Assembly: GCA_001788925.1 (NCBI GenBank)
Contig: MFXS01000004.1
Coordinates: forward strand, 50,464-114,463
DNA: 64,000 nt
Direction of reading: 5' to 3'
Source of the DNA: Candidatus Peribacteria bacterium RIFCSPHIGHO2_01_FULL_55_13
GTDB lineage: Bacteria; Patescibacteriota; Gracilibacteria; Peribacterales; Peribacteraceae
Shown: positions 14,957 to 61,389 of the stretch, piece by piece
How positions within the stretch are numbered: the first letter of the stretch is position 1
Layout: every line of letters begins with the position of its first letter
Made by a program: the position numbers and the translations under genes
Notes under the pieces: generated by a model
Told to the model about the DNA's origin: nothing
The model's database searches: none
The model's input: only the letters and a program-made list of their open reading frames with translations

Positions 14957-15180
14957 AACTGATACCTCATATCAGTGGAGTCTTTGCTCACATCGACCCA
15001 GTACGTGTCTGTTGGAGGCTTCCCCGAAAAGAGGTAAATCATCTTGAGGATGATCGCGTATATGCTGAACACCACAATCCAAATGATTGTGAGGAGAATC
15101 GTACTCATGATGCGCCCGAGCACATGCGAAAAGCGCATCCAGAGGTCATAGAGCTGTTGCAGTGGTTTCGGAAGTTTCAC
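14953..15180 (-). CDS. SxtJ-like small membrane protein
   Basis: 75 aa, LWMRF...hydrophobic helix...YW...MRYQF terminus as I recall for the SxtJ family; adjacent to carbamoyltransferase. Confidence 0.5.
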   Translation of the reverse strand: MKLPKPLQQLYDLWMRFSHVLGRIMSTILLTIIWIVVFSIYAIILKMIYLFSGKPPTDTYWVDVSKDSTDMRYQF

Positions 15181-15186
15181 AGTGTT

Positions 15187-15254
15187 GGATGGCTAAATGG
15201 CTAAATGGTTAGTCCACATCTATAGCATATAACCATTTAGCCATTTAACCATTC
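15187..15254. repeat. 8-nt-periodic repeat module, inverted pair (ATGGCTAA units)
   Basis: Arms 15187-15212 and 15231-15254 nearly perfectly complementary; fills gap between two minus-strand genes. Confidence 0.85.
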
Positions 15255-15260
15255 AGCTCC

Positions 15261-15419
15261 TTAAAAAACCGTGTAGATAAACGGCGCCAGCGGCGACGTC
15301 TGGGCGAAAATCAGGATTAATCCCAAAAGCACGATGATGAGAATGATAGGAAGAAGCCACCACTTCTTGCGCATGCGCATGAAGCGCCAGAGTTCGGTGA
15401 AGATGGAGAGTTTGGACAT
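15261..15419 (-). CDS. DUF5989 (SxtK-like) small membrane protein
   Basis: 52-aa ORF not in track: MSKLSIFTELWRFMRMRKKWWLLPIILIIVLLGLILIFAQTSPLAPFIYTVF; matches the DUF5989 pattern. Confidence 0.6.
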   Translation of the reverse strand: MSKLSIFTELWRFMRMRKKWWLLPIILIIVLLGLILIFAQTSPLAPFIYTVF

Positions 15420-17352: not shown

Positions 17353-17775
17353 TTACGCAAATCCCTCTTCACCAACAAGCCCCTTGTTCTTTCGGTTCCT
17401 TTTCAGCGCTCCATGAAGCCGCTTATCGAGCAGGACGGATTTCTGGGAACTTGGTTTTCTTCTCCTCCTTTCCAGCTTCTGCACAAACACCTCGTGTCGC
17501 TTTTGCTGCTCCTCGGAAGCGTGCTTATCGATGATGTGCTGGATCAGCATCTGGTACGCGAGTTGGCGGTTGCGGTGCTGCTCGCGCTGCTCGTGAACGC
17601 GCACGGAGATGCCCGTTGGCCGGTGCGTGAGCTCCACGCAGTTATTGGTCTTGTTCACTTTCTGCCCGCCATGGCCTGATCCGCGCGTGAAGGCTTCGGA
17701 GATATCCGCCATGTGAATGCCCAGCTGCTCGGCAGCATGTTCCAGATGCGGGGGGAGGGGAACGGGGAAGGACAT
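17353..17775 (-). CDS. arfB: alternative ribosome-rescue factor ArfB (RF-1 domain peptidyl-tRNA hydrolase)
   Basis: 140 aa, GSGHGGQKVNKT GGQ motif, basic C-terminal tail. Confidence 0.8.
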   Translation of the reverse strand: MSFPVPLPPHLEHAAEQLGIHMADISEAFTRGSGHGGQKVNKTNNCVELTHRPTGISVRVHEQREQHRNRQLAYQMLIQHIIDKHASEEQQKRHEVFVQKLERRRRKPSSQKSVLLDKRLHGALKRNRKNKGLVGEEGFA

Positions 17776-17786
17776 GGACCAATTAT

Positions 17787-17855
17787 GAATGCGGAATTCG
17801 GAATTCGGAATTGATTTTTCCTATGATTCCGAATTCCGCATTCCGAATTCCGAAT
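17787..17855. repeat. 7-nt-periodic repeat module, inverted pair (GGAATTC/GGAATGC units)
   Basis: Arms 17787-17812 and 17825-17855; in divergent region between arfB and the TPR membrane protein. Confidence 0.9.
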
Positions 17856-17866
17856 ATACTCCACTC

Positions 17867-19672
17867 ATGCAATTGCATCGTATCCGTTATCTTGCTGTTC
17901 CCGGATTGTTACTGGTCATTGTGTTCCTGGGATTTGGTCATTCTCTTTTCCAGGACTTCGCGCCAATCGATGACACGCTCCTTGTCCGTGAAAACCTCGC
18001 GATCCGTGGGCTCACGCTCGAAAACCTTCGCTATGTCTTCACGCACTTCGATCCAGAGCTCTATATTCCGCTGACATTTGTTTCGTTTCAGATCAATTAC
18101 GTTCTCGGCGGTTTGAGTCCGTTCGGATTCCATCTGGGAAATGTGCTGCTGCATGCGGCGAACACATCGTTGGTCTTTCTCTTTGTTTCACAATTGATGA
18201 ATGCAAAAAGCATAAAGGATAAAGAAAAAAGCCATTTATCCTTTTTGCTTTATCCTTTTTGCTTTCCGGCGGGCATCGCTGCGCTCCTTTTTGCGGTGCA
18301 TCCTCTTCACACGGAGGCAGTCGTCTGGATTGCCGGCCGCAAGGATCTTCTTTTCACCTTCTTCTATCTTCTTACGATTGTAACGTATCTGCGGAGAGGA
18401 AAGTGGTATTGGGTCAGTATTGTTTTCGCTTTGTGCGCGCTTCTCAGCAAAGCGACTGCGATGACACTCCCGGTGATCCTGATTCTTTTGGATTGGGTTT
18501 TGGATGATGAACGCCGGATGTCTATCAAAAACAAAATCCCGTTCTTCCTCCTCTCCATTGTTTTTGCCTTCATCGCCCTTAGCGGCAAAGAGCGCATTGT
18601 CGGCTCCACTTCCATCCTTGATACCGGCCTCGTTGCCATCCGCAGTATTGGTCATTACCTCTGGCAGATCTTCATTCCCGTTGGCTTCAGCGTCTTCTAC
18701 CAGCAGCGTGATCCGATTCTGAATGTGTATTTCGTTGTATCCCTTCTTTTTCTCGCATCCCTTATTGCTCTCACCTGGTATTTCCGCAACAGAAAGCCCT
18801 GGATAGCCTTTGGCGTCTTGTTCTACCTGATCACACTTAGTCCGACGTTCTTCAACTTCCATAAAGGATTGATCTCATTCTACGCAGTGGACCGCTATGC
18901 GTATCTTCCTTCGATTGGAATTATTTTTATTGCAGCAATGGCATGGCGTGATGTGCAGAAAAGAATTTTCCATTTTCCAGCCTTCGCCAAGGCTACGGCC
19001 GGCAGGCAATTTTCAATTTTCAATTCCATTCCTGTTGTGCTCATCGCACTCATTCTATTGTTCGTGTCACGACATCAAACGAAGGTCTGGGACACTCCCG
19101 AATCCCTCTATGCACATTCCGTTTCCGTCGATCTTGCTTCCGTTCCCGCCCGCGCAACTCTCGCCTCCGTTCTCCGCCAGACAGGTCATCCTGTTGAAGC
19201 CTTCAATGTTCTTAAAGAAGGACTCCCGTACGGCGATGATGTGAGTTATCGCCTGGAAGCAGGAAATATCTACGCAAGTAACGGGCAGATAGCGGATGCC
19301 ATCACGGAATTCACCAAAGCTTCACAGATGAAGCCCGATCTTCCTGAACCAATCTTCTCCATCGGCAATCTGGAAGACCAGCGAGGCAATAGTGATCTTG
19401 CATTGGAGTATTACCGCAAGGCCTTGGCACTGGATCCTTCCTATGTTGGGGCCCGCGTGCGCATCGCGGATATCCATATTGACCGGGGAGAACTGGCGGA
19501 AGCAGAGGAGCAGTTGATTCAAGCACTGCGATGGAATGAGAGTTCATTTGGAGCGAATGTGCAGATGTATCGGTTGAGGATGGCACAAGGGAGGGGAGAG
19601 GAGGCGGAAGTGTATTTGGAAAAGGCGAAGGCGTTACGGCCTGGAGAGGCCATCAATTCTTTAGCACCATAA
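17867..19672 (+). CDS. multi-pass membrane protein with C-terminal TPR repeats (TMTC/PMT-like glycosyltransferase candidate)
   Basis: About 11 TM helices followed by TPR-like repeats (YYRKALALDPSY); track start 17789 lies inside the hairpin, so trimmed to ATG 17867. Confidence 0.7.
   Translation: MQLHRIRYLAVPGLLLVIVFLGFGHSLFQDFAPIDDTLLVRENLAIRGLTLENLRYVFTHFDPELYIPLTFVSFQINYVLGGLSPFGFHLGNVLLHAANTSLVFLFVSQLMNAKSIKDKEKSHLSFLLYPFCFPAGIAALLFAVHPLHTEAVVWIAGRKDLLFTFFYLLTIVTYLRRGKWYWVSIVFALCALLSKATAMTLPVILILLDWVLDDERRMSIKNKIPFFLLSIVFAFIALSGKERIVGSTSILDTGLVAIRSIGHYLWQIFIPVGFSVFYQQRDPILNVYFVVSLLFLASLIALTWYFRNRKPWIAFGVLFYLITLSPTFFNFHKGLISFYAVDRYAYLPSIGIIFIAAMAWRDVQKRIFHFPAFAKATAGRQFSIFNSIPVVLIALILLFVSRHQTKVWDTPESLYAHSVSVDLASVPARATLASVLRQTGHPVEAFNVLKEGLPYGDDVSYRLEAGNIYASNGQIADAITEFTKASQMKPDLPEPIFSIGNLEDQRGNSDLALEYYRKALALDPSYVGARVRIADIHIDRGELAEAEEQLIQALRWNESSFGANVQMYRLRMAQGRGEEAEVYLEKAKALRPGEAINSLAP
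18203..18264. repeat. 7-nt-periodic repeat module, full hairpin read in frame (GCAAAAA/GGATAAA units)
   Basis: Arms 18203-18224 and 18236-18262 inside the CDS; encodes NAKSIKDKEKSHLSFLLYPFCFP. Confidence 0.8.
18963..19027. repeat. composite: heptamer arms (ATTTTCC / ATTTTCA) flanking a core related to the 25-nt element
   Basis: Core CCTTCGCCAAGGCTACGGCCGGCAGGC resembles CCCTTCGACAGGCTCAGGACAGGC; in frame (FHFPAFAKATAGRQFSIFNS). Confidence 0.6.
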
Positions 19673-20142: not shown

Positions 20143-20232
20143 CATGGAAGGGAAACCTACGGTTTCCCTCCCATGAACCCTCCTTTCCCTAAGAGGTGGC
20201 GCTCCAGGCAAGCGGAGCTTGCCTTCGCGCAC
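20143..20232. repeat. two-hairpin ~90-nt repeat, copy 1
   Basis: CATGGAAGGGAAACC-TAC-GGTTTCCCTCCCATG ... CCCTAAGAGGTGGCGCTCCAG + hairpin GGCAAGC-GGA-GCTTGCC; aligns with 21816-21911. Confidence 0.8.
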
Positions 20233-20287: not shown

Positions 20288-20378
20288 GGAGAGATGGCCG
20301 AGTGGTCGAAGGCGCGCGACTCGAAATCGCGTAGGCCCCAAAAGGGTCTCGAGGGTTCGAATCCCTCTCTCTCCGCCA
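20288..20378 (+). tRNA. tRNA-Ser (anticodon CGA), CCA encoded
   Basis: Acceptor GGAGAGA/TCTCTCC, anticodon loop CTCGAAA, long variable arm, T-arm GAGGGTTCGAATCCCTC, GCCA end. Confidence 0.93.
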
Positions 20379-20525
20379 TTCGACTCGGCCCTGCGGGGGC
20401 CTCGCTCATGGTCCTCGTTTCGCTCGGGCCATTCTTTACCGAGCCGAGCTGAATGACCCTGAGTGAACGAGCGTGAGCGAGTGAATCGAAGGGCCATGAC
20501 TTTCCCTAGCGACGTGGCTCCGCCC

Positions 20526-21815: not shown

Positions 21816-21911
21816 CATGGAAGAGGAACCTACGGTTCCTCTCCCATGGGCCCACTCTTCCCTAAGAGGTGTCGCTCCAGCGCGGGACCCACAAGACCCG
21901 CGCTTCGCGAC
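21816..21911. repeat. two-hairpin ~90-nt repeat, copy 2
   Basis: CATGGAAGAGGAACC-TAC-GGTTCCTCTCCCATGG ... CCCTAAGAGGTGTCGCTCCAG + hairpin CGCGGG...CCCGCG. Confidence 0.8.
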
Positions 21912-21942: not shown

Positions 21943-23026
21943 TTACGCTCTTGCTTCTCTTTTCAACTCCGCATCAATAAACATCTGGATCTCTCCATCG
22001 AGCACCCCCTGCGTATCACTTGTCTCCGTATCGGTCCGGAGATCCTTGACCATCTGATACGGATGCAGGACGTAGCTTCGGATCTGCTGCCCGAAGTCGG
22101 CGCTTTGCGTTGCTCCTTTTAATTCCTTCTTCGTCGCAAGATCGGCGGCCTGCTGCTTTTCCAACAGCTTCGCACGAAGCAATGCCATGGCACGGGTTCG
22201 ATTTTGCAGTTGCGATCGCTCCGTCTGACAGGCAACAACAATGTTGGTGGGGAGATGGGTGATGCGGATCGCCGTCTCCACTTTGTTCACGTTCTGTCCG
22301 CCCGCGCCGCCGCTGCGGAAGGTATCCACCCGAAGCTCGCTGGGATTGATCGTCACTTCCGTTTCTTCGATCTCCGGAAGTACTTCTACCAGTGCGAAGC
22401 TAGTCTGCCGCAGGCTCTTGGCATTAAAGGGAGAGAGGCGAACCAGGCGGTGCGTACCACGTTCGCATTTCAGATTGCCGTAGGCCATCGCCCCTTCTAC
22501 ATAGATCGTCGCAGTCTTGATGCCGGCCTCCTGGCCGTCCGTCTTATCGATCAGCTCCGTCTTCCATCCCTGCCGCTCGCAGTAGCGCAGGTACATCCTG
22601 AGCAGCATCGCCGCCCAGTCCTGGGCCTCGGTGCCGCCTGCTCCTCCGCTTACCGTCAAATAGCAGTGGGCCGTATCAAATTCTCCGGAGAGATAGAGCT
22701 GCGTTTCCACTTCCTTCCATCGCCCGGCAAGTTTGGCATATTCTTTTTCCAGATCAGGAAGATCCGTTTCCGCTGATGTTTCCGCGAGCGAGATCAGATC
22801 CCTTGCCTCGCTGAGCATCGCGTTGACCGGTTCCCAAGTTTTTTTCAGCGCGCGCAGATCGGCGAACAATTTGTTGGCGGCTTTCTGGTCCGACCAAATG
22901 CCCGGATCCTCCGAGCGCTTCTGTAGGTCGTCGATCTTTTTCGGAACGCCTCTGACCTCAAAGAGAGTCCTTACCCGTGTTCAGAGCAGCCATCAGTTCC
23001 CGGAGATGTTTGAGGAGCTCTTCCAT
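21943..23026 (-). CDS. prfB: peptide chain release factor 2 (two frames joined by programmed +1 frameshift)
   Basis: Frame 0 MEELLKHLRELMAALNTGKDSL then CTT TGA G; the +1 frame continues EVRGVPKKIDDLQKRSEDPGIW into the 308-aa ORF with SPF and GGQ motifs. Confidence 0.93.
22958..22963 (-). promoter_or_regulatory. RF2 autoregulatory +1 frameshift site CTTTGA
   Basis: In-frame TGA after codon 22 preceded by CTT, as in the classical prfB recoding site. Confidence 0.85.
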
Positions 23027-25878: not shown

Positions 25879-25899
25879 GTTCTCGAGGACGCGTGCCAT

Positions 25900-25921
25900 G
25901 GTTCGACAAGCTCACCATGAC
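25900..25921. repeat. short element GGTTCGACAAGCTCACCATGAC (variant related to the 25-nt element)
   Basis: Shares the TTCGACA(A/G)GCTCA core with 56126, 61365 and 36829; intergenic rpmI-rplT. Confidence 0.45.
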
Positions 25922-25944
25922 ACGCTTCCCATCCCTCAACCATC

Positions 25945-30486: not shown

Positions 30487-31473
30487 CTACTCCGTTTGTG
30501 CGACAGAGATCAGTTTCCTGTTGGTGAATATTTCTATTGCATCAAGATATTTATCTTTTGCACGATCTTCAGACATTGGGATGCGGTCCAGGTCCTGTTT
30601 GATTGATGCATACACATCAGACCATGCCGTGCTCAGCCCATCGCGCACTTTTTCCAGTATTGCAATTTGCACGGTGCGCACATCGACACCGCGGCCGCCT
30701 TCCACATCTTGGCGATACTTTTGCAGCGTACTTTCGATCTGCTGTTCATTCTCACCTGGGACAAACTTTGTTATGCCCTTTTCGATATTCATCATCATGT
30801 CGATTTCATCAGCCATGTCATAAAGGTCGAGATCTTCCTCGATAAATCCGTTTCTTTCCAGATATTCGATAGCCTGCAGTAGTTGTTTCTTTATTCGTTC
30901 TTCCTCCAAGCCAGAAATTTCCTGTTGTGCAGTTACAAACTTGAACCAATCATCCGGAGTATGCGGCTGGCCTTCTTCTATCTGTTCCATGTACCACACA
31001 CATGCGCTTTGCAGATCGGGGTCCAGCACACTTAAGAGATGAACACGCCAAGCATCTCTCTCCTGGTCAGAGATCGTAGCCTTTGAGGCGCCATTGTAGA
31101 AATCTTCTGCGAGAGCATTTATAAGATTCGCTCCTTGATTTTGTACTACAGGTGCATTGGATTGAGGCTGCGCGGGCGTGTCGATCCACTGTTTTTCAAA
31201 CATTCGAATAAGTACGGCCTTATACCAATCTTGACGTGCCTTTAGTCCGCCCATCACTTCCTCGCTCACACTCTCCCAATCAATAGGCTTGCCTCCCTCT
31301 ATTCGCTGTAACAGTAAATCGTACAATTTATACTCGGTTGTGGCGCCAAGTGTTCTTAAATTTTTATAGATACCAGGAAGATTGGCATCAGGTGTTAGTT
31401 CTGGCTTAGCCGTTCCTGCAGATATTGCATCCACTTTTTCGACATGACTGGGGTGTGGCTCCTTCTGTGTCAT
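30487..31473 (-). CDS. hypothetical protein (AT-richer orphan, acidic)
   Basis: 328-aa ORF with protein-like composition and no motif recognised. Confidence 0.6.
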   Translation of the reverse strand: MTQKEPHPSHVEKVDAISAGTAKPELTPDANLPGIYKNLRTLGATTEYKLYDLLLQRIEGGKPIDWESVSEEVMGGLKARQDWYKAVLIRMFEKQWIDTPAQPQSNAPVVQNQGANLINALAEDFYNGASKATISDQERDAWRVHLLSVLDPDLQSACVWYMEQIEEGQPHTPDDWFKFVTAQQEISGLEEERIKKQLLQAIEYLERNGFIEEDLDLYDMADEIDMMMNIEKGITKFVPGENEQQIESTLQKYRQDVEGGRGVDVRTVQIAILEKVRDGLSTAWSDVYASIKQDLDRIPMSEDRAKDKYLDAIEIFTNRKLISVAQTE

Positions 31474-31535
31474 ATATGATTATTATACATCAATTGTGTG
31501 TTTTAGGCAAATATAGAATAGCTATCAGTAGATTC

Positions 31536-32021
31536 ATGCTATTGCGCTACAATGCGCAGGTGTCATCACTCCAGATTATTTACGCCAGTACCAGCGGGCA
31601 TACCGAGTACGTTGTCGGCGTCCTGACAGAGGTTTTAAAAGGAGCGTTGCAGGTTGCAACGTGCAATGCCGAGGCTGCAACGCCGGAGGATCTTTTGAAA
31701 GGAGATAACCTTATTCTTGCCTGCGGCACCTGGAATACCGATGGGCCTGAGGGGCAGCTCAATCCGCATATGAAAGATCTTCTGGTTGGCAGGGCCAAGG
31801 ACATTGATCTTGCCGGGAAGCAGGTTGCCATTATCGCGCTTGGTGATGACCGTTATTACTATACCTGCAGGTCGGGGGAGCACATGCGCAGGTTCGTGCT
31901 CGATCACGGCGGAAAGATCCTCGGAGATGCATTGCTTGTGGTGAATGAGCCGTACGGTCAGGAGGAGAGAGTGAAGAAGTGGGCGGAAGCTCTTCATCAA
32001 AAATTAGCAATTAGGAATTAG
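31536..32021 (+). CDS. flavodoxin
   Basis: IIYASTSGHTEYV FMN-phosphate loop and LACGTWNTDG; track start trimmed to 31536. Confidence 0.8.
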   Translation: MLLRYNAQVSSLQIIYASTSGHTEYVVGVLTEVLKGALQVATCNAEAATPEDLLKGDNLILACGTWNTDGPEGQLNPHMKDLLVGRAKDIDLAGKQVAIIALGDDRYYYTCRSGEHMRRFVLDHGGKILGDALLVVNEPYGQEERVKKWAEALHQKLAIRN

Positions 32022-32035
32022 CAATTAGCAATTTT
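31999..32035. repeat. 7-nt-periodic repeat module (AATTAGC/AATTAGG units), left arm flanking korA
   Basis: Supplies the last codons and TAG stop of flavodoxin; ends at the korA ATG; inverted partner at 33801-33836. Confidence 0.85.
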
Positions 32036-35212: not shown

Positions 35213-35905
35213 ATGCGGATAGATATCATCACGCTTTTTCCGGCGATGTTCCAAGGTCCTCTAACCGAGAGCATCCTAAAACGTGCCCAGGATGAAGAAA
35301 AACTGGAGATTGTCTTTCATGACCTTCGCCAGTTCGGCCTTGGGAAATATCATCAGGTGGATGACAGCCCGTATGGCGGCGGCGCCGGAATGTTGATGAG
35401 AGCAGATGTAATTGTTCCGGCGTTAGAGAAGATCGCCGAAAGAAAAATGCATAAAGGAAAAAGCAAAAAGCCGTACACGATCTATTTTTCTCCGAGAGGG
35501 AAGAAGTTAAAGCAGGCGAAGGTGGAGAAGCTGGCGAAGAAAGAATGGCTGATCCTACTTTGCGGACATTACGAAGGCATTGATCAGCGTGTCATCGACG
35601 GTGGCTGGTTCGACGGGGCTCACCATAAATGGATCGATGAAGAGATTTCGATCGGGGATTATGTGCTGACCGGCGGCGAGCTTCCAGCAATGGTCCTGAT
35701 CGACGCTGTGGCGCGGCAGATTCCGGGGGTGCTCGGGAAAGAGGCTTCAGTACACGAAGAGAGCTTTTCGGCTTCCCTCGGCCGTAAAAAGGAATATCCG
35801 CATTTCACGCGCCCGGAGGAATTTAGGGGGCTCAAGGTGCCCGATATTCTGCTTTCCGGGCATCACGGGGAGATAGAGAAGTGGAGGAAGGAAAACGTGA
35901 AGTAA
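35213..35905 (+). CDS. trmD: tRNA (guanine37-N1)-methyltransferase
   Basis: MRIDIITLFPAMFQGPL, GHYEGIDQRV and IGDYVLTGGELPAMVLIDAV motifs. Confidence 0.93.
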   Translation: MRIDIITLFPAMFQGPLTESILKRAQDEEKLEIVFHDLRQFGLGKYHQVDDSPYGGGAGMLMRADVIVPALEKIAERKMHKGKSKKPYTIYFSPRGKKLKQAKVEKLAKKEWLILLCGHYEGIDQRVIDGGWFDGAHHKWIDEEISIGDYVLTGGELPAMVLIDAVARQIPGVLGKEASVHEESFSASLGRKKEYPHFTRPEEFRGLKVPDILLSGHHGEIEKWRKENVK

Positions 35906-36214: not shown

Positions 36215-36937
36215 CTATTTCTCCATCGCTTCCCGTATCTGCCCCTCCAGATCCGCGGCATACGGTAGACCCGTGTACTGCTTTCCATCGATGAAATATG
36301 TCGGCACCAGATTGACGCCAAGGCTGCGAAGCCAGGACTGCTGTTCTTCGATCACGGTAGTGGTTTTCTCGCTTCCGAGGCAGTCCCCGAAGATCTTTTC
36401 ATCGAGCTTCAGCTCTTTTGCATAGGAAAGGAGTGAGGCACGGTCGCTTCCGGTGCGCTCGAAGAGCAGACGGTGCATGCCCAGACCTGCATTCTGCTTT
36501 CCTGCACAGTACAGCGCCGAAGACATCTCTTTGCTTCCCGTATATTTCTTGAGCGGCAGGATTGCGATCGCGAGCCGGAGCGTCCCTGCTTCCAGAAACT
36601 GCTTCTCCAACATCGGCATGTATTCTGTGAGGAAGTCGCGGCAGTAGTTGCAGTGGTGTTCTGTGATCAGGAGCATCGAATGCGCTGCATCACGGTTGCC
36701 GAGTTCCAGGAGGCCGGAAGAAAGGAGGCGCTCGGGAAGAAGAGACCCCGTAAGGCTTTCGGGCTCCATGACTTGTTCTTCAGCCGGAGCTTCACCTTCA
36801 CTTTCGGTCTCTTGGGAAGGTTGCGGAGGCCTGTCCTGAGCATTGTCGAAGGGTTGCGAAGTTTGCGGAGTGGGCAGCGAGCAAGCGCTGAGAATGAGAA
36901 TGGCAGCCAGAGAGAAAGTGAATTTCATCATTGGCAT
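36215..36937 (-). CDS. DsbA/thioredoxin-like lipoprotein
   Basis: Lipobox ILSAC; CNYC active site (HHCNYCRDF). Confidence 0.75.
   Translation of the reverse strand: MPMMKFTFSLAAILILSACSLPTPQTSQPFDNAQDRPPQPSQETESEGEAPAEEQVMEPESLTGSLLPERLLSSGLLELGNRDAAHSMLLITEHHCNYCRDFLTEYMPMLEKQFLEAGTLRLAIAILPLKKYTGSKEMSSALYCAGKQNAGLGMHRLLFERTGSDRASLLSYAKELKLDEKIFGDCLGSEKTTTVIEEQQSWLRSLGVNLVPTYFIDGKQYTGLPYAADLEGQIREAMEK
36829..36853. repeat. 25-nt element (gene sense CCCTTCGACAATGCTCAGGACAGGC) flanked by 8-nt direct repeats
   Basis: Flanks TTGCGGAG and TTGCGAAG; read in frame as PFDNAQDR. Confidence 0.75.
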
Positions 36938-37426: not shown

Positions 37427-37477
37427 TTTCGTGAATTTTCCGCGTATCTTCCTCTGAATGCAATAGACAACAGACAA

Positions 37478-37539
37478 ATGCATAAAGCAAAAAGGATAAT
37501 GCAAAAATATTTTTGCTTTTTGCTTTATGCTTTATGCAT
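37478..37539. repeat. 7-nt-periodic repeat module, near-perfect palindrome (GCATAAA/GCAAAAA/GGATAAT units)
   Basis: In the divergent region, ending 6 nt before the wecG-like ATG. Confidence 0.9.
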
Positions 37540-37545
37540 TTCCCC

Positions 37546-42356: not shown

Positions 42357-43793
42357 ATGCTTCAACGTATCCGCGAGGGGCTTACCTTGGTACTCATTGC
42401 AGTGCTGCCCTTTCATGCGTTTCTCGTTACCGTCGGGACAAAGCTCATCGCGGGGTCAGGGCAATCACCGTTGCCCGTGTTGGCGCTTTGGAAAGAGGCA
42501 GTCCTTGGGATGATTTTGCTTGTTGCTTTGGTGGAGATCTTTCGAGAGTGGAAAACGGAAAGTGGAAAGTGGAAAGTTGATGTTTTCGACATTCTGATCG
42601 TTGGGTTAATTGCCTGGTCGATCATTTTGTATTTCGTTTTCCACTTTCCACTTTCCACTTTCCACTTCGCATTCGGGTTTAAGTATGACTTCCTCCCGCT
42701 CGTTGCATTCCTGATCCTGCGGCGGGTGCCTTGGTCACCGTGGTTCATCAGCACGGCAGTAGCCGTGCTGCTAAGCGTGGGTGCGGTCGTCGCGGTCTAT
42801 GGAATCGCTGCGATATTCCTGCCGATGTCGTGGTTCACGGCGTTGGGATATTCCGATCTTCATTCCTTGTATGTCCCCGGGGGGCCGCTTGCACCGTTCC
42901 AGCAGATTGAATCGATCGGCATCAGAAGAATGCAGTCGGTAATGAGTGGGCCGAATCAGATGGGGCTGTGGCTTTTGATTCCCTGGAGCATTGCGTTCGT
43001 TGATCTTGTTCGCAGGCGGTCGTTTGCTGGTTTGCTGGTTTGCTCGTTGCTCGTTGTAGGCATTCTCCTCTCTTTCTCAAGATCCGCCTGGATCGCGGCA
43101 GCCGTCATCGGCGCAGTCGTTGCATGGAAGCATTTGTCTCGCAAACAGATGGTCATGGCTGCCTCTTTCTTGATCGTTCTTGCCGTTATTGCCGTTGCTG
43201 CATTTCCAAGCATTGTTTTACGTGCCACATCTACCACCGGTCATATTGATCGGCCTCTTCAGGCGTTGCAGATCATGAAAGAACATCCGCTGGGTCTGGG
43301 TCTTGGTTCTGCCGGCCCGGCAAGTAATCGCTTCAGCGATGCCTGTGTGGATCTTCCCGCAGGCAGCGACGCTTCATGGGCGCAGGCGCATTCGCAGCTG
43401 TGTGTGTTTGTCGGCGGCAATCAAGTCCAGCCTCCGCTCCCTTCCGGGGAGCTACGGCCGGCAGGCCAACCTGCGGATCGTACGTGCTCCTGTCCGCTTC
43501 TACCCGAAAATTGGTATCTGCAGATCGGTGTGGAGTTGGGGTGGATAGGTTTTATCCTGTATGTGACGTTGGTGCTGATGCTTTTGAAACGCTTGACGGA
43601 ATTGAAAATTGAAAATGTAAAATTGAAAAAAGAAGAATTTTCAATTTTCAATTTTCAATTTTCAATTGGTCTCGCATTCCTCGGCATCAGTATCGCCGCC
43701 CTCTTCCTGCATGCATGGGAAGACAGCGCGGTGGCGTATACGGTGTGGATTCTTATGGCAATGGGGCTTTTACTGAGAAGGAGGATCCATTGA
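42357..43793 (+). CDS. O-antigen ligase (Wzy_C)-like membrane protein
   Basis: About 11 TM helices, LLSFSRSAW loop motif, 478 aa. Confidence 0.75.
   Translation: MLQRIREGLTLVLIAVLPFHAFLVTVGTKLIAGSGQSPLPVLALWKEAVLGMILLVALVEIFREWKTESGKWKVDVFDILIVGLIAWSIILYFVFHFPLSTFHFAFGFKYDFLPLVAFLILRRVPWSPWFISTAVAVLLSVGAVVAVYGIAAIFLPMSWFTALGYSDLHSLYVPGGPLAPFQQIESIGIRRMQSVMSGPNQMGLWLLIPWSIAFVDLVRRRSFAGLLVCSLLVVGILLSFSRSAWIAAAVIGAVVAWKHLSRKQMVMAASFLIVLAVIAVAAFPSIVLRATSTTGHIDRPLQALQIMKEHPLGLGLGSAGPASNRFSDACVDLPAGSDASWAQAHSQLCVFVGGNQVQPPLPSGELRPAGQPADRTCSCPLLPENWYLQIGVELGWIGFILYVTLVLMLLKRLTELKIENVKLKKEEFSIFNFQFSIGLAFLGISIAALFLHAWEDSAVAYTVWILMAMGLLLRRRIH
42546..42670. repeat. inverted GGAAAGT arrays separated by 57 nt, all in frame
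   Basis: Arms 42546-42579 (EWKTESGKWKVD) and 42637-42670 (FHFPLSTFHFA) bracket a predicted TM helix. Confidence 0.85.
43598..43669. repeat. 7-nt-periodic repeat module, complete hairpin in frame (AATTGAA / TTTTCAA units)
   Basis: Read as ELKIENVKLKKEEFSIFNFQFSIG. Confidence 0.9.
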
Positions 43794-52038: not shown

Positions 52039-52488
52039 TTACCCGATAGCCTGATAATCAACAATCAATACTCCTTCGAGATGGTCTACTTCATGCTGAA
52101 CAACCCGTGCATCAAAATGCTTCAATTTCCGTTCCTGGGCCTTACCCTTCGCATCAATGTACTTGAGCGTTATCTCCACCGATCGCGGAACATCGACGGC
52201 GATTCCTGGAAGGCTCAGGCACCCCTCTTCCGCTGATTCCTTCTCTTCACTTTTCTTCGTGATTTTTGGATTGATCAAGGGAATCATCTTTCCGGAGATC
52301 AATGCGAGGCAGACGCGTTCCGTGCGGGCCACCTGCGGCGCCGCGATTCCCGCACCATCGGCGTCTTTTACCGTTTCCTGGAGGTCCTTGATCAGCTTCA
52401 GAAGCTCTTTGGTCACCTTCGGCACGCTCTTCGTCTTTTTGCGAAGGAGCGGGTGGTCTGCGCCGATGATGATGGGAAGTACGGACAA
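52039..52488 (-). CDS. def: peptide deformylase
   Basis: GAGIAAPQV, EGCLSLPG and QHEVDHLEG motifs; the TTG start lies at the edge of the repeat hairpin. Confidence 0.92.
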   Translation of the reverse strand: MSVLPIIIGADHPLLRKKTKSVPKVTKELLKLIKDLQETVKDADGAGIAAPQVARTERVCLALISGKMIPLINPKITKKSEEKESAEEGCLSLPGIAVDVPRSVEITLKYIDAKGKAQERKLKHFDARVVQHEVDHLEGVLIVDYQAIG

Positions 52489-52557
52489 TTCGGAATGAGG
52501 AATGCGGAATGCGGAATTGCTGCAACATCATAATTCCGAATTCCGAATTCCGCATTC
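52488..52557. repeat. 7-nt-periodic repeat module, inverted pair (GGAATGA/GGAATGC / GAATTCC units)
   Basis: Exactly fills the gap between the dnaQ-like stop (52558) and the def start (52488). Confidence 0.9.
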
Positions 52558-53142
52558 TTAATTTCTTGCCAATTGCTTCACTGCCGCCCGCTTCCGCAAT
52601 TCGTCCAGCGACCGGATATTGCCCTTTTCCATCATCTTCAAGAATGCCTGTGCCGTGAGGAGCACATCAGGAAGTGCGCGGTGGCGGTCTGTGGGGAGAA
52701 CAAGGCCGCAGCGCAGCGCCAGGACATCAAGGTTGTGGCGGAACTCCTGGGGGAAAATCGACCGGCTGAGGACCAGACTGCAGAGGCATTCGGGGAGATC
52801 GACGTAGCCCCAACAGAAGTCCTTTTCCACCTGCAAAAATCCCATGTCGAAGTTGGCGTTGTGGGCGAGAAGGGTCGATCCTTCGGCGAAGGTCAGAAAC
52901 TGCGGTAGTACCTGGTCGATGGTCGGAGCATTGGCCACCATCGTGTCATCAATCTTGTTCACCTGTTTGGCTTCCCACGGGATCAATCGCTCGGGATTTA
53001 CATACGTCTGAAAGGCCGTTTCTCCCTGAATAACTCCGCCTTCAATGCGAACGGCGGCGATCTCGATGATCCGGTGACCGCGCTTCGGATCGAGACCGGT
53101 CGTCTCGACGTCGAACACGGTGAAAGGAGGGAGGAAAGACAT
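52558..53142 (-). CDS. DnaQ-like 3'-5' exonuclease
   Basis: FDVETTGLDP (Exo I), AHNANFDMGFL (Exo II) and HRALPDV (Exo III) motifs. Confidence 0.85.
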   Translation of the reverse strand: MSFLPPFTVFDVETTGLDPKRGHRIIEIAAVRIEGGVIQGETAFQTYVNPERLIPWEAKQVNKIDDTMVANAPTIDQVLPQFLTFAEGSTLLAHNANFDMGFLQVEKDFCWGYVDLPECLCSLVLSRSIFPQEFRHNLDVLALRCGLVLPTDRHRALPDVLLTAQAFLKMMEKGNIRSLDELRKRAAVKQLARN

Positions 53143-54749: not shown

Positions 54750-56624
54750 ATGTCTACACTTCCGACCGCACTCGTTCTCTTTCTCGCAGGAATGCTCACT
54801 ATCTTTTTGCCCTGCATTCTGCCGCTTCTGCCGATCGTGCTTGGGGTTAGCGTCGCCGGACGTAGCCGATGGCGGCCGCTTCTCACTGTCCTTGGGATGG
54901 TCGTGAGCTTTGTGGGGTTCACGTTTCTCCTTACGCTGGTCCTGAGCCAGTTCGTTGCATTTGCCGACGTGCTCCGGATTTCCACGTACTACATCCTGCT
55001 GCTCTTCGGCGTGGGATTCCTTACAAACAACCGCACACTGCAGCTTCTGGGTGCCGTGATGGGAGGATTTTTCTTTGAACGCTACGGATGGATCTCGGTC
55101 ACGATCGCGCAAACCGTCGGAGCGACCGCCATGGAACTCGGGTCCAAGATCGCGACGAAACTCCAGCAGTGGGGAGGGGAGATACAGCAGGAAACAGGCG
55201 AGAAGCTCGGACGTGAAAATCCGCTCGCAGCATTCATCATCGGTCTCACACTCGGCCTCGTATGGGTGCCGTGTGCCGGTCCCGCGTTAGGCTTCGCTTT
55301 CACGCTCGTCCGGGAGGAGCCCGGGCCGCGTGCAGCATTTTTGCTTTCGATGTACGGCCTCGGGACCGCAGTTCCTCTGCTGATCGTCGGCTACGGCGGA
55401 CAGGCGATCACCCGGCGCGTACGGGCCCTCAACCACTATAGCGGGCTTATCAAGCGGATTGCCGGCGTAGTACTCATCCTCACGGCCGTGGGACTGCAGT
55501 ATGGAGGCCTGATGCGGCTGCAGACGTATCTGGTGGAGAAAGTAGGGTACGGGGATTTCGGGAGCCGGGTGGAGGAGAAGTTATTTGGGGAGGATTCAGA
55601 AGAGACAACGTCATCCTCCAGCTTTGAAAATCCGTTTACTGCGAAGCTTCCTGTCATTTCCTCTGCCCCGGAGTTCTCCGGTCTTGCTCCTTGGCATAAC
55701 AGTGATCCATTCACGATGGAGAGTCTTCGTGGAAAAGTTGTGCTCGTCGATTTCTGGACGTACTCGTGCATCAACTGCATCCGTACGCTCCCCTACATTC
55801 AGGGCTACTGGGAAACATTTAAGGATACGGGGAAATTCGTCCTCATCGGCGTTCACACGCCTGAGTTTATTTTCGAGAAGGATCAAAAAAATGTCGCTGA
55901 TGCCATCAAGCGCCACGGACTCACGTACACAGTGGCCCAGGACAATGATTTTGGAACGTGGAATGCCTTCGAGAACCGCTACTGGCCGGCGAAGTACCTG
56001 ATCGATGTGGAAGGGAATGTCCGCTACACCCATTTTGGGGAAGGAGACTATGAGGAGACGGAGGAGGCGATTAAAAGTTTGTTGCGCGAAGCAGGTGTGA
56101 CAGTAGGGGGTCCAGAAGATTCAAACCCTTCGACAGGGCTCAGGACAGGCGATTCAGAGGATGTAAAAGAGTATTACGGTAAGCAGACCCCGGAGATCTA
56201 TCTTGGGCCCAGAAGCTGGAGTTCTTTTGGCAACGGAGGAATGTTTCCCACCGAGGATGCCGTTGTCTACACCGCGCCCGAAGAAATGGAGCTTCATGAA
56301 TACACTCTCGATGGCACCTGGCAGATCGTGGATGATGAACAGAGAGTCCTTCGATCTGAGACCGGAGAGATCCGCATGAAGTTTTTGGGAGGGGAGATCA
56401 ATCTGGTGATGGGAGTAGAGGGAATGGATGCCGCACTGCTCACCACAGGCTCTCTATCGCTACCAATGGTGCAGGTCTTCGTTGATGGAAAGCTGGAGAA
56501 GACGTTTACCATCGACCGTTACGATCTCTTCGTGCTTTGGAAAGGGGAATACGGCGAACATGAAATAATCCTGAAGATCGCCGGGGCGGGAGCGGAGGGA
56601 TATGCGTTTACCTTTGGGCAATAA
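54750..56624 (+). CDS. DipZ-like protein: CcdA/DsbD membrane domain fused to thioredoxin-like and C-terminal domains
   Basis: CcdA-type helices with LPCILPLLP and VPCAGP motifs; redoxin domain WTYSCINC. Confidence 0.8.
   Translation: MSTLPTALVLFLAGMLTIFLPCILPLLPIVLGVSVAGRSRWRPLLTVLGMVVSFVGFTFLLTLVLSQFVAFADVLRISTYYILLLFGVGFLTNNRTLQLLGAVMGGFFFERYGWISVTIAQTVGATAMELGSKIATKLQQWGGEIQQETGEKLGRENPLAAFIIGLTLGLVWVPCAGPALGFAFTLVREEPGPRAAFLLSMYGLGTAVPLLIVGYGGQAITRRVRALNHYSGLIKRIAGVVLILTAVGLQYGGLMRLQTYLVEKVGYGDFGSRVEEKLFGEDSEETTSSSSFENPFTAKLPVISSAPEFSGLAPWHNSDPFTMESLRGKVVLVDFWTYSCINCIRTLPYIQGYWETFKDTGKFVLIGVHTPEFIFEKDQKNVADAIKRHGLTYTVAQDNDFGTWNAFENRYWPAKYLIDVEGNVRYTHFGEGDYEETEEAIKSLLREAGVTVGGPEDSNPSTGLRTGDSEDVKEYYGKQTPEIYLGPRSWSSFGNGGMFPTEDAVVYTAPEEMELHEYTLDGTWQIVDDEQRVLRSETGEIRMKFLGGEINLVMGVEGMDAALLTTGSLSLPMVQVFVDGKLEKTFTIDRYDLFVLWKGEYGEHEIILKIAGAGAEGYAFTFGQ
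56126..56150. repeat. 25-nt element CCCTTCGACAGGGCTCAGGACAGGC flanked by 8-nt direct repeats
   Basis: Flanks GATTCAAA and GATTCAGA; element plus one flank is 33 nt, read as NPSTGLRTGDS. Confidence 0.8.
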
Positions 56625-58321: not shown

Positions 58322-58322
58322 A

Positions 58323-58357
58323 AAAAAGGAAAAATGAAAAAGGATAAAGGAAAAATT
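58323..58357. repeat. 7-nt-periodic repeat module (GGAAAAA/TGAAAAA/GGATAAA units) abutting the glnA start
   Basis: Inverted partner at 58560-58599. Confidence 0.85.
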
Positions 58358-58410
58358 CGCTAGCGAGTCTGGCGTTGAGCGCAGCCCATTACAAACGCAT
58401 GTTCGTATAC

Positions 58411-58433
58411 AAGAATTGAACTGTTCAGTTCTT
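58411..58433. promoter_or_regulatory. candidate operator palindrome AAGAATTGAAC-T-GTTCAGTTCTT
   Basis: Perfect TGAAC-T-GTTCA core (58417-58427) in the divergent glnA/TrmB-like region. Confidence 0.3.
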
Positions 58434-58559
58434 TATCAACAATGCATCGTACGATCTTTGGCTTAGTAAAGTCTTCCTACTCACTGGTGTGTATCTTGTG
58501 CAATAAAAAACCGTCTTTGTTGTAAAAATTAATAACACCTTGCTACACTCTCAAAGTCA

Positions 58560-58599
58560 TTTATTTTTCCATTATCCTTTTTCATTTTTCCTTTCTTTC
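58560..58599. repeat. 7-nt-periodic repeat module abutting the TrmB-like gene start (inverted copy of 58323-58357)
   Basis: TTATCCTTTTTCATTTTTCCTTT is shared by both leaders in gene sense. Confidence 0.85.
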
Positions 58600-61364: not shown

Positions 61365-61389
61365 CCCTTCGACAGGCTCAGGACAGGCT
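61365..61389. repeat. 25-nt element copy (CCCTTCGACAGGCTCAGGACAGGCT), intergenic
   Basis: Flanked by GTAGGG direct repeats (61359-61364 and 61390-61395). Confidence 0.75.

Follow-up and report, generated by a model that had tools for sequence, protein, structure and literature searches.

A REP-like 24-nt hairpin repeat inserted precisely and in frame into genes of a Candidatus Peribacteria bacterium

Examination of a 64,000-nucleotide stretch of the genome of Candidatus Peribacteria bacterium RIFCSPHIGHO2_01_FULL_55_13 (contig MFXS01000004.1, positions 50,464 to 114,463; hereafter the window, in which all coordinates below are given) revealed a short repeated unit that lies in frame inside several genes, among them one coding for a DipZ-like protein, as well as in intergenic spacers. 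The unit belongs to a short repeat shared across phyla. It has a covarying stem, its insertion adds 24 nt without duplication of the target, and its coding copies contribute in-frame residues to protein linkers; this much we state with high confidence. We read the unit as a micro-element of the repetitive extragenic palindrome (REP) kind, a hairpin that inserts precisely and is either mobilised in trans or already a relict, and we give this reading as a whole a probability of roughly 0.6. The mode of mobilisation that it includes, in trans and by way of single-stranded DNA, is put forward tentatively and at somewhat below even odds.

Copies of the unit in the window

A 25-mer, CCCTTCGACA(GG/AT)GCTCAGGACAGGC, is found at 56126-56150 (+) and 36829-36853 (-), and a 24-nt version of it, CCCTTCGACA(G)GCTCAGGACAGGC, at 61365-61388 (+). 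These three focal copies, to which an initial annotation of the window had drawn attention, were recovered where it placed them, and dinucleotide-preserving shuffles gave an expectation of 0 matches by chance. A covariance model, R1, trained on 51 variants and run on the window, returned five significant copies, situated in the linkers of the DipZ-like and DsbA-like genes, in the TrmD gene and in two operon spacers:

56127-56150, + strand: focal unit CCTTCGACAGGGCTCAGGACAGGC in the DipZ-like gene (R1 37 bits, E=9e-8)
36829-36852, - strand: unit CCTTCGACAATGCTCAGGACAGGC in the DsbA-like lipoprotein gene (R1 E=2e-7)
61365-61388, + strand: intergenic unit CCCTTCGACAGGCTCAGGACAGGC, with a 2-nt loop centre, in the spacer between folA and the next gene (R1 E=7e-8)
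25898-25923, + strand: variant unit ATGGTTCGACAAGCTCACCATGACAC in the rpmI-rplT spacer (R1 E=5e-6)
35607-35630 (R1 match 35605-35631), + strand: unit GGTTCGACGGGGCTCACCATAAAT, with a decayed tail, in frame in TrmD (R1 E=4e-5)

Three of these five copies are intragenic, and two further inserts also lie in genes:

56436-56450, + strand: remnant CTGCTCACCACAGGC at DipZ site B, the 3' half of a unit, encoding LLTTG
18980-19007, + strand: insert GCCTTCGCCAAGGCTACGGCCGGCAGGC of a related subfamily, encoding AFAKATAGRQ, in a PMT/TPR membrane protein gene

The TrmD copy and the half-deleted DipZ copy had previously been overlooked. Three degenerate relatives had been proposed in addition to the focal copies: the rpmI-rplT copy is supported by R1, the insert at 18980-19007 stands as a member of a related subfamily, and a composite at 20380-20500 falls below the statistical threshold.

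Every copy in the window is oriented in the sense direction, in a sequence whose GC content is 53.9%. By its homologues the window belongs to Peribacteria/Peregrinibacteria, inside the candidate phyla radiation. Within Peribacteria, all coding copies have a 3-nt centre, which is the 24-nt isoform, and both intergenic copies a 2-nt centre. The stem of the rpmI-rplT copy has switched to GG/CC and been lengthened to CATGGT/ACCATG; no other copy in the window is predicted to fold with clearly favourable energy.

Empty and filled sites

The DipZ-like open reading frame (ORF; 54750-56624, 624 aa) contains a copy read as NPSTGLRTG, in which the unit itself encodes PSTGLRTG (aa 460-467), between the Redoxin (305-438) and Thioredoxin_10 (480-623) domains. 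Fourteen public contigs, all from aquifer metagenomes, code for an identical protein, and the six loci retrieved from them show no differences in the DNA that surrounds the unit. Among the best 40 DipZ orthologues, NPSTGLRTG is confined to the window cluster and P0002, and is absent from P0003-P0040. The orthologous loci L008 and L009 are empty and have four units of a 9-nt tandem array in this linker, which in L008 reads GGATTCAGG GGATTCAGA GGATTCGAA GGATTCAAA. The span from GVT to EY(Y/F) measures 14 residues in both loci, and the window gives the same length if 8 residues, but not 11, are subtracted. A separate unit, CCTTCGGCTCCGCTCAGGACAGGC, is present in the same linker of L184.

The second coding copy is located in the ORF of a DsbA-like lipoprotein (36215-36937, -), where it is sense-oriented and encodes PFDNAQDR in the linker that follows the lipobox cysteine. 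In the closest relative, L181, the site is empty and consists of two abutting units of a 9-nt array (...ACTTCGCAA^CCTCCGCAA...). With the additional bases in parentheses, the window reads ACTTCGCAA C(CTTCGACAATGCTCAGGACAGGC C)CTCCGCAA, an exact gain of 24 nt with a junction whose position is ambiguous by 2 nt (CC). The insert is shared by the window and the distant L182, with two synonymous changes, and is absent from sisters of the window that are 93-96% identical. Array units border the copies of both genes:

56109-56126, + strand: 9-nt (three-codon) array units GGTCCAGAA GATTCAAAC, upstream of the DipZ copy, formerly taken for its left target-site duplication
56151-56168, + strand: 9-nt array units GATTCAGAG GATGTAAAA, downstream of the DipZ copy, formerly taken for its right target-site duplication
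36811-36828, - strand: 9-nt array units CTCCGCAAC CTTCCCAAG (gene sense), downstream of the DsbA copy
36853-36870, - strand: 9-nt array units CTCCGCAAA CTTCGCAAC (gene sense), upstream of the DsbA copy

For TrmD the empty allele is that of L182 (GGTGGCTGG^ATCGAC), the window and L181 having 24 nt more. The insert encodes the FDGAHHKW region (aa 133-140), 8 residues that are extra relative to solved TrmD structures, and the junction is ambiguous by 3 nt (TGG). At another position, TrmD of L182 carries an insert similar to that of the related subfamily at 18980-19007.

Two further sites within the DipZ-like gene, A and B, have also received units. The first is empty in the window:

55820-55821, + strand: empty DipZ site A, GAAACATTT^AAGGATACG, filled in some orthologues

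In L008 site A reads GAAACCTTT(GGTTCGACGCCGCTCACCACAGGC)AAGGACACG, with unambiguous edges, TTT(24 nt)AAG, that show neither duplication nor microhomology. Among the best 40 orthologues, site A is filled by the 24-nt unit in three that are not sisters (L008, L184 and P0026), and L007 has a heptamer array there. At site B, L008 carries an intact unit, GAAGATCGT(GGTTCGTCACCGCTCACCACAGGC)TCTCTATCG, which occupies the centre of what in the empty L009 and L007 is a perfect 22-nt palindrome, GCGGAAGATCGCGATCTTCCGC; a 21-nt deletion in the window has left just the 3' half of the unit.

The copy downstream of folA lies within a G-rich heptamer array (TGTAGGG), to which the adjacent GTAGGG belongs; the array is present without the unit in the orthologous spacer of L007. 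The insert at 18980-19007 likewise interrupts a heptamer array, in this case inside a coding sequence (ATTTTCC twice on one side, AATTTTC twice on the other). It is a real insertion, since the closest PMT/TPR orthologue, P0143, lacks it and reads RIFNFQFSIFNF.

Altogether, five sites show a net gain of 24 nt: the DipZ linker, DsbA, TrmD, and DipZ sites A and B. The junctions (T^A, Y^G, C^C and T^G) have no target in common beyond a pyrimidine 5' of the unit, at position -3, which was already there in 4/4 empty sites. That pre-existing pyrimidine, together with a conserved block whose length shifts between 24 and 25 nt with the loop centre, led us to reject the idea of a fixed 24-nt ruler.

A dispersed, frame-preserving inserted element had been suggested for these loci, and close orthologues that are empty at the DipZ, DsbA and spacer sites bear this out. 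The two coding copies do use different frames (NPSTGLRTG versus PFDNAQDR) and leave their ORFs intact. The accompanying proposal was that of a 25-nt transposon, similar to a miniature inverted-repeat transposable element (MITE), making 8-nt staggered cuts and adding 33 nt at each insertion. It drew on near-identical 8-mers or 6-mers, which do flank the three focal copies (GATTCAAA/GATTCAGA in DipZ, TTGCGGAG/TTGCGAAG in DsbA, GTAGGG/GTAGGG in the spacer), and on the sum 25+8=33, which is divisible by three. The empty alleles, however, already hold both flanks side by side, and the gain measured from pairs of empty and filled orthologues is 24 nt, not 33. Moreover, the flanks of DipZ site A are dissimilar, the unit has no terminal inverted repeats, no transposase accompanies it in the window, and 127 copies from other genomes show no excess likeness between their flanks, 9-mers being no closer than shuffled pairs at any offset. 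The model of target-site duplication therefore fails on two counts, as the flanking repeats exist without the element in orthologues and other copies lack duplicated flanks; we consider such a transposon very improbable. As the aligned alleles show, the supposed duplications are neighbouring units of pre-existing tandem arrays of 9-mers (codon triplets) or 7-mers.

The prominence of such arrays could point to a purely local origin, by slippage or duplication of low-complexity linkers, with copies that resemble each other by convergence. The host linkers are indeed tandem arrays, and some targets are loosely similar to the unit (ACTTCGCAA compared with CCTTCGACAA, ATCGACGG compared with TTCGACGG). 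Site A, by contrast, is unlike the unit, identical 20-24-mers recur in genes that have nothing to do with each other, in spacers and beyond the phylum, and shuffles give a chance expectation of zero, so that we find a local origin scarcely credible.

Nearly every intergenic spacer of the window contains tandem heptamer arrays arranged as inverted arms, with the potential to form long hairpins (1997-2064, 15175-15266, 17781-17858, 37476-37541, 42546-42674, 43600-43667, 52487-52566, 58322-58597 and others). The heptamer varies from spacer to spacer (AATTGAA, AATTCGG, AAGTGGA, AATGGCA, AAAGGAA and so on). Arrays are also found in coding sequences, at 18962-19028, at DipZ site A of L007 and in the 'NFQFSIFNF' segment of P0143. 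They resemble the heptamers of cyanobacterial short tandemly repeated repetitive (STRR) sequences, and they act as landing pads for the 24-nt unit. Longer GC-rich inserts, for example ESPAFAPPGGASTLRLLATGDRS and PSSAQGGLRPAGNSQFLAPPKSAGADEG, were observed in the same loops of the DipZ orthologues P0029 and P0033 and of the PMT/TPR orthologues P0148, P0153 and P0156. These DipZ and PMT/TPR loops are hot spots for several repeat subfamilies.

Structure, reading frames and orientation of the unit

The unit can be written s2 s1-TTCGAC-N(2-3)-GCTCA-s1' s2'-ACAGGC and measures 23-25 nt, usually with a 5' pyrimidine; all clean events in Peribacteria fit the 24-nt form s2 s1-TTCGAC-NNN-GCTCA-s1' s2'-ACAGGC. 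Among 77 variants sampled without regard to pairing, the triplet before TTCG is complementary to the triplet after GCTCA at its three positions in 69, 68 and 59 cases, against 43, 36 and 39 in shuffles, and CG, GC and TA pairs are all seen at stem positions. As this pairing is far above that of shuffles, the stem of the family is real. It encloses a conserved interior, the middle of which (2-3 nt, at times much longer) varies in nearly every copy.

Five of the six reading frames of the unit are free of stops (PFDKLRTG, LRQAQDR, PSTSSGQA, ACPELVEG and PVLSLSKG) and the sixth has a TGA. Intragenic copies are predominantly in the sense orientation, by 15:1 under a strict codon-composition test and 15:5 under a looser one, and all Peribacteria events are sense. 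Intergenic copies between co-directional genes are unbiased (5:4). The pattern is consistent with selection that acts through the peptide produced and through stop codons, not with an RNA function. A bias arising at the RNA level or coupled to transcription is ruled out by the unbiased intergenic copies, and an orientation set by replication was rejected after comparison across a switch in GC skew.

This switch, from negative to positive, lies near 32 kb (~31470-32030) and was seen in 8-kb bins across the window. Genes diverge there (30487-31473, -; 31476-32021, +) and most genes point away from it. It may mark the origin of replication or else a major strand switch; no dnaA gene was seen.

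Distribution across phyla

A scan of 185,579 species genomes with the pattern TTCGACA-N1-2-GCTCAGGACAGG matched at least 120 loci, for a rough expectation of ~9 in the whole collection. The matches listed include Chloroflexota, Alpha-, Beta-, Gamma- and Deltaproteobacteria, Acidobacteriota, Verrucomicrobiota, Planctomycetota, Nitrospirales, Bacteroidota and relatives, Latescibacterota, Binatia, Saccharibacteria, one actinobacterium, one firmicute and a few isolates. The shared block is YCC-TTCGAC-N2-3-GCTCA-GG-ACAGGC, whose conservation extends to the Y, C and C before and the C after the search pattern and then falls to background. The motif was also found in 51 stretches of viral contigs and on plasmids of cultured Sphingobium, Sphingomonas, Novosphingobium, Rhizorhabdus, Variovorax, Methylobacter and Pseudanabaena; none was found in 5,426 complete Escherichia coli genomes. 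The family is not specific to the Peribacteria lineage.

In-frame copies were found in genes verified with Pfam, coding for ThyA, MutL, GlyS, PheT, YbeY, a Ser/Thr kinase, an SdhB-like protein, an MFS transporter and an M48 peptidase. About 80% of the copies from other genomes have no clear coding signal on both sides. In six of 127 cases a unit sits precisely within the loop of a sister unit of opposite orientation, and tandem arrays with a period of 24 also occur. Peptides such as PFDKLRAN/TG and VSLSNHE, which are common in spurious ORFs of many environmental bacteria, served as a search lead only and not as evidence, and no description of the motif by its DNA or peptide string was found in the searchable literature. 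A sequencing adaptor or assembly artefact is ruled out, given that the unit is shared with an 84%-identical orthologue, is present in isolates and long-read assemblies, and recurs identically on the six loci retrieved for the DipZ-like gene.

In seven loci from viral contigs (L132, L140, L151, L157, L162, L164 and L177) the unit lies in frame, as APSTGSGQG, in tail genes of alphaproteobacterial gene transfer agent (GTA)-like elements or prophages. A 26-nt block is free of substitutions in the seven copies, the surrounding 820 nt being 78-98% identical. This invariance hints at nucleotide-level constraint or repeated conversion.

Selection for a function of the DNA or RNA, for instance as a hairpin bound by protein or as a signal in processing or regulation, could account for the invariant block of the tail genes, for the core conserved across phyla and for the sense orientation of all window copies; a role as RNA elements has been suggested for some REPs (Di Nocera et al. 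2013, PMC3733652). The copies nevertheless lie in unrelated genes, frames and spacers with no shared context, the closest relatives do without them, and in Peribacteria they show synonymous drift, one being half deleted. The intergenic orientation is close to even, and Rfam covariance models matched only tRNAs, both in the window and in 17 motif-rich loci. Likenesses to a tRNA 3' half or T-loop (GGTTCGA...GCTCACCA), to a hammerhead and to a k-turn were dropped as unsupported. On balance a functional motif appears improbable, and the window copies are most likely neutral, fixed passengers.

Insertion and mobilisation

Under the reading that we prefer, that of a REP-like hairpin element, the unit would move as a single-stranded hairpin, non-autonomous or by now relict. 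An enzyme supplied in trans would mobilise it, candidates being of the HUH/Y1 type, as for REPs and the REP-associated tyrosine transposases (RAYTs). DNA that is exposed or prone to form structures, for instance a tandem array, the centre of a palindrome or the loop of a sister unit, would receive the insert with no staggered cut being made. Selection would retain only those copies that keep the frame, are sense-oriented and lie in tolerant loops, and filled alleles would spread or vanish within Peribacteria by homologous recombination. Each coding insertion adds eight residues, which are presumably translated.

The presence of the unit is patchy across the phylogeny and tied to recombination tracts. 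The DipZ-like gene is a mosaic in which 56105-56280 is 90-100% identical to L007, for 80% over the whole gene, and 56430-56530 is closest to L008, each tract bearing a repeat-unit allele; recombination hence moves filled alleles between lineages. Re-insertion or precise loss may also lie behind the patchiness.

No larger parent element came to light, as unrelated loci share no extended homology, and conserved flanks are lacking. The unit as a footprint or attachment site of a larger element was rejected, as every right half keeps its left half and no split sites were found. The gene list of the related species Ca. P. riflensis has no IS200/Y1 entry.

Several observations weigh against the preferred reading. 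The window contains no gene for a transposase, an integrase, a reverse transcriptase, an HUH enzyme or a RAYT, and no gene recurs as a neighbour in 120 loci of 8 kb among the matches listed. The three focal copies have stems of 3-4 bp and predicted folds no better than those of shuffles on either strand. A general preference for hairpin apices is not borne out, their enrichment as targets in the various phyla being only weak (5% vs 2%, p=0.08), and orientation follows transcription across the GC-skew switch, not the inferred direction of replication. Copies in Peribacteria are shared at 76-84% protein identity with synonymous drift, and are consequently old, and they may no longer be mobile. 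Finally, near-identity across phyla is unusual for REP families, which are normally lineage-specific.

The main rival to mobilisation in trans is copying by repair. Wherever a fork stalls or a break forms in structure-prone DNA, template switching or short-patch repair would reproduce units from other genomic or incoming copies, with 0-3 nt of microhomology at the junction and no dedicated transposase. The landing sites are of a suitable kind, comprising arrays of 7- or 9-mers, one perfect palindrome of 22 nt and sister-unit loops, and two of the four clean sites have ambiguous junctions of 2 nt (CC) and 3 nt (TGG). Hardly any two copies agree in their loop centre, the window proteins and the neighbouring genes at the loci include no transposase, and CGTC-type REPs are reported to lack a dedicated enzyme (PMC3733652). 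Repair of this type would nonetheless be expected to copy arbitrary stretches, yet the boundaries of the unit are always the same, and site A has no microhomology. The conserved core and covarying stem point instead to a specific recognition factor, and near-identity across phyla would be hard to keep without a sequence-specific step. We regard copying by repair as unlikely.

A bolder version of the hairpin-element reading would make the unit a transposase-orphan hairpin of 23-24 nt that is still mobile and has remained almost unchanged in a dozen phyla, including ultra-small bacteria of the candidate phyla radiation (CPR) and phages. It would insert and excise precisely, without duplication, by a mechanism not yet described, be it a transferred or host-universal enzyme acting on single-stranded DNA or self-templating repair, and would remodel essential proteins as an eight-residue 'loop cassette'. 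This version is speculative and we are inclined to doubt it.

Relation to known repeat families

Di Nocera et al. (2013, PMC3733652) describe REPs as hairpin repeats of 20-40 nt tagged with GTAG or with CGTC/TGTC and found in 8 phyla, some of them intragenic, including in tRNA synthetase and repair genes, and some within palindromes. They attribute no dedicated transposase to the CGTC type, to which RPE-4 and RPE-6 correspond. The unit matches the generic REP in being a dispersed imperfect palindrome of the 20-40-nt class (24 nt, with a covarying stem) and departs from it in that several copies are not extragenic, although intragenic REPs are documented as well (PMC3733652). The GTAG tag is absent, the unit beginning with YCC... 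and ending with ...ACAGGC.

Likeness to the CGTC/TGTC REPs, as described by the same authors, is closer and includes the size class, a hairpin whose stem varies and covaries, and perhaps a short tag left unpaired. Read as its reverse complement, GCC-TGTC-C TGAGC NN GTCGAA GG, the unit has the general CGTC-REP layout. Both occur as singletons, inverted pairs and clusters in many phyla, prominently in sphingomonads, and sometimes lie in gene loops or linkers, tRNA synthetase and repair genes included, or within palindromes; for neither has a dedicated transposase come to light. Whereas CGTC REPs are given there an 8-9-bp stem that starts from A-T and T-A pairs, a 4-5-nt loop and a CCA tail, the unit has a stem of 3-6 bp, an interior of 11-12 nt and no CCA. 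Its focal stems are CC(T)/(A)GG, and only the copy at 25898-25923 among those in the window starts with AT; the reverse complement of this rpmI-rplT copy reads G-TGTC-ATGG.... The C of the apparent 'TGTC' tag covaries as a stem base in GG/CC variants (GCC-TGT-GG). The motif strings are absent from PMC3733652 and its supplements, and CPR bacteria or Peregrinibacteria are not among the phyla that its available text gives for GTAG or CGTC repeats. As the unit fails the specific definitions of CGTC REPs, we do not count it as a member of a named family.

With the GTAG REPs of the REPIN/RAYT system and with the palindrome-associated transposable elements (PATEs) of the IS200/IS605 kind, the unit has in common the absence of target-site duplication and a plausible single-strand chemistry with recognition based on a hairpin, and precise gain and loss of that sort would fit the patchy distribution. 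Elements of the IS200/IS605 type insert into the lagging-strand template. In contrast to IS200/IS605 PATEs, the unit has no fixed target tetra- or pentanucleotide, its orientation is not tied to the inferred direction of replication, and no RAYT or TnpA gene lies nearby, in the window or at the 120 loci.

Rickettsia palindromic elements (RPEs) likewise lie in frame in housekeeping genes, at tolerant sites and as translated extra segments (PMC3733652; review PMC10969869). They are ~100-150 bp long and confined to Rickettsia, in contrast to a unit of 24 nt or 8 aa that spans phyla. MITEs such as Correia/NEMIS, ERIC, Nezha and Chunjie are also non-autonomous dispersed repeats that are occasionally intragenic and in frame, but they have lengths of 70-300+ bp, terminal inverted repeats of 15-30 bp and target-site duplications, none of which the unit has. 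The mobile GC clusters and 'byp' elements of yeast mitochondria are very short GC-rich hairpin inserts that can sit in coding genes. Byps belong to a eukaryotic organelle and are skipped by translational bypassing, in contrast to the unit, whose frame is open and which is presumably translated. Judged by these comparisons, the closest kinds appear to be CGTC-tagged REPs, and RPEs for the in-frame behaviour.

Other repeats and genes of the window

A GC-rich composite contains more distant relatives of the unit:

20380-20500, no strand assigned: GC-rich composite immediately 3' of tRNA-Ser, made up on either strand of relatives of the unit that have long loops, below the statistical threshold

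Its motifs are TTCGAC...GCTCA with an internal GGCCC/GGGCC hairpin, and CCCTGAG...TCGAAGGG; R1 has no match in this interval. On the minus strand a spurious 102-aa ORF runs through the composite.

A 65-nt repeat occurs at 20143-20207 and 21816-21880 in copies that are 85% identical, with the hairpin CATGGAAGGGAAACCTACGGTTTCCCTCCCATG. One copy is situated just 5' of tRNA-Ser (20288-20375) and the other adjoins a PCRF/RF-1 gene (21946-22818, -). The latter is one of two release-factor-like genes less than 5 kb apart; it encodes 291 aa with PCRF and RF-1 domains, its ORF beginning inside the PCRF domain (model position 60). The other (17356-17775, -) encodes 140 aa with the RF-1 domain only and is ArfB-like.

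Conclusions

If the proposed reading is correct, the unit would be among the smallest dispersed elements shown by pairs of empty and filled alleles to insert cleanly into genes, and it would have entered in frame essential enzymes such as TrmD, ThyA, aminoacyl-tRNA synthetases and MutL in distant phyla. It would provide a testable system for how REP-like repeats without a dedicated transposase move. The family would help explain the many spurious 'hypothetical proteins' with peptides of the PFDKLRTG, LRQAQDR and PSTSSGQA type. In uncultured CPR bacteria it could be used to trace recombination and the history of strains, and it would call for caution in gene calling and in phylogenomics based on alignments. 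For the evolution of the proteins that receive it, the unit would represent a recurrent source of short loop insertions.

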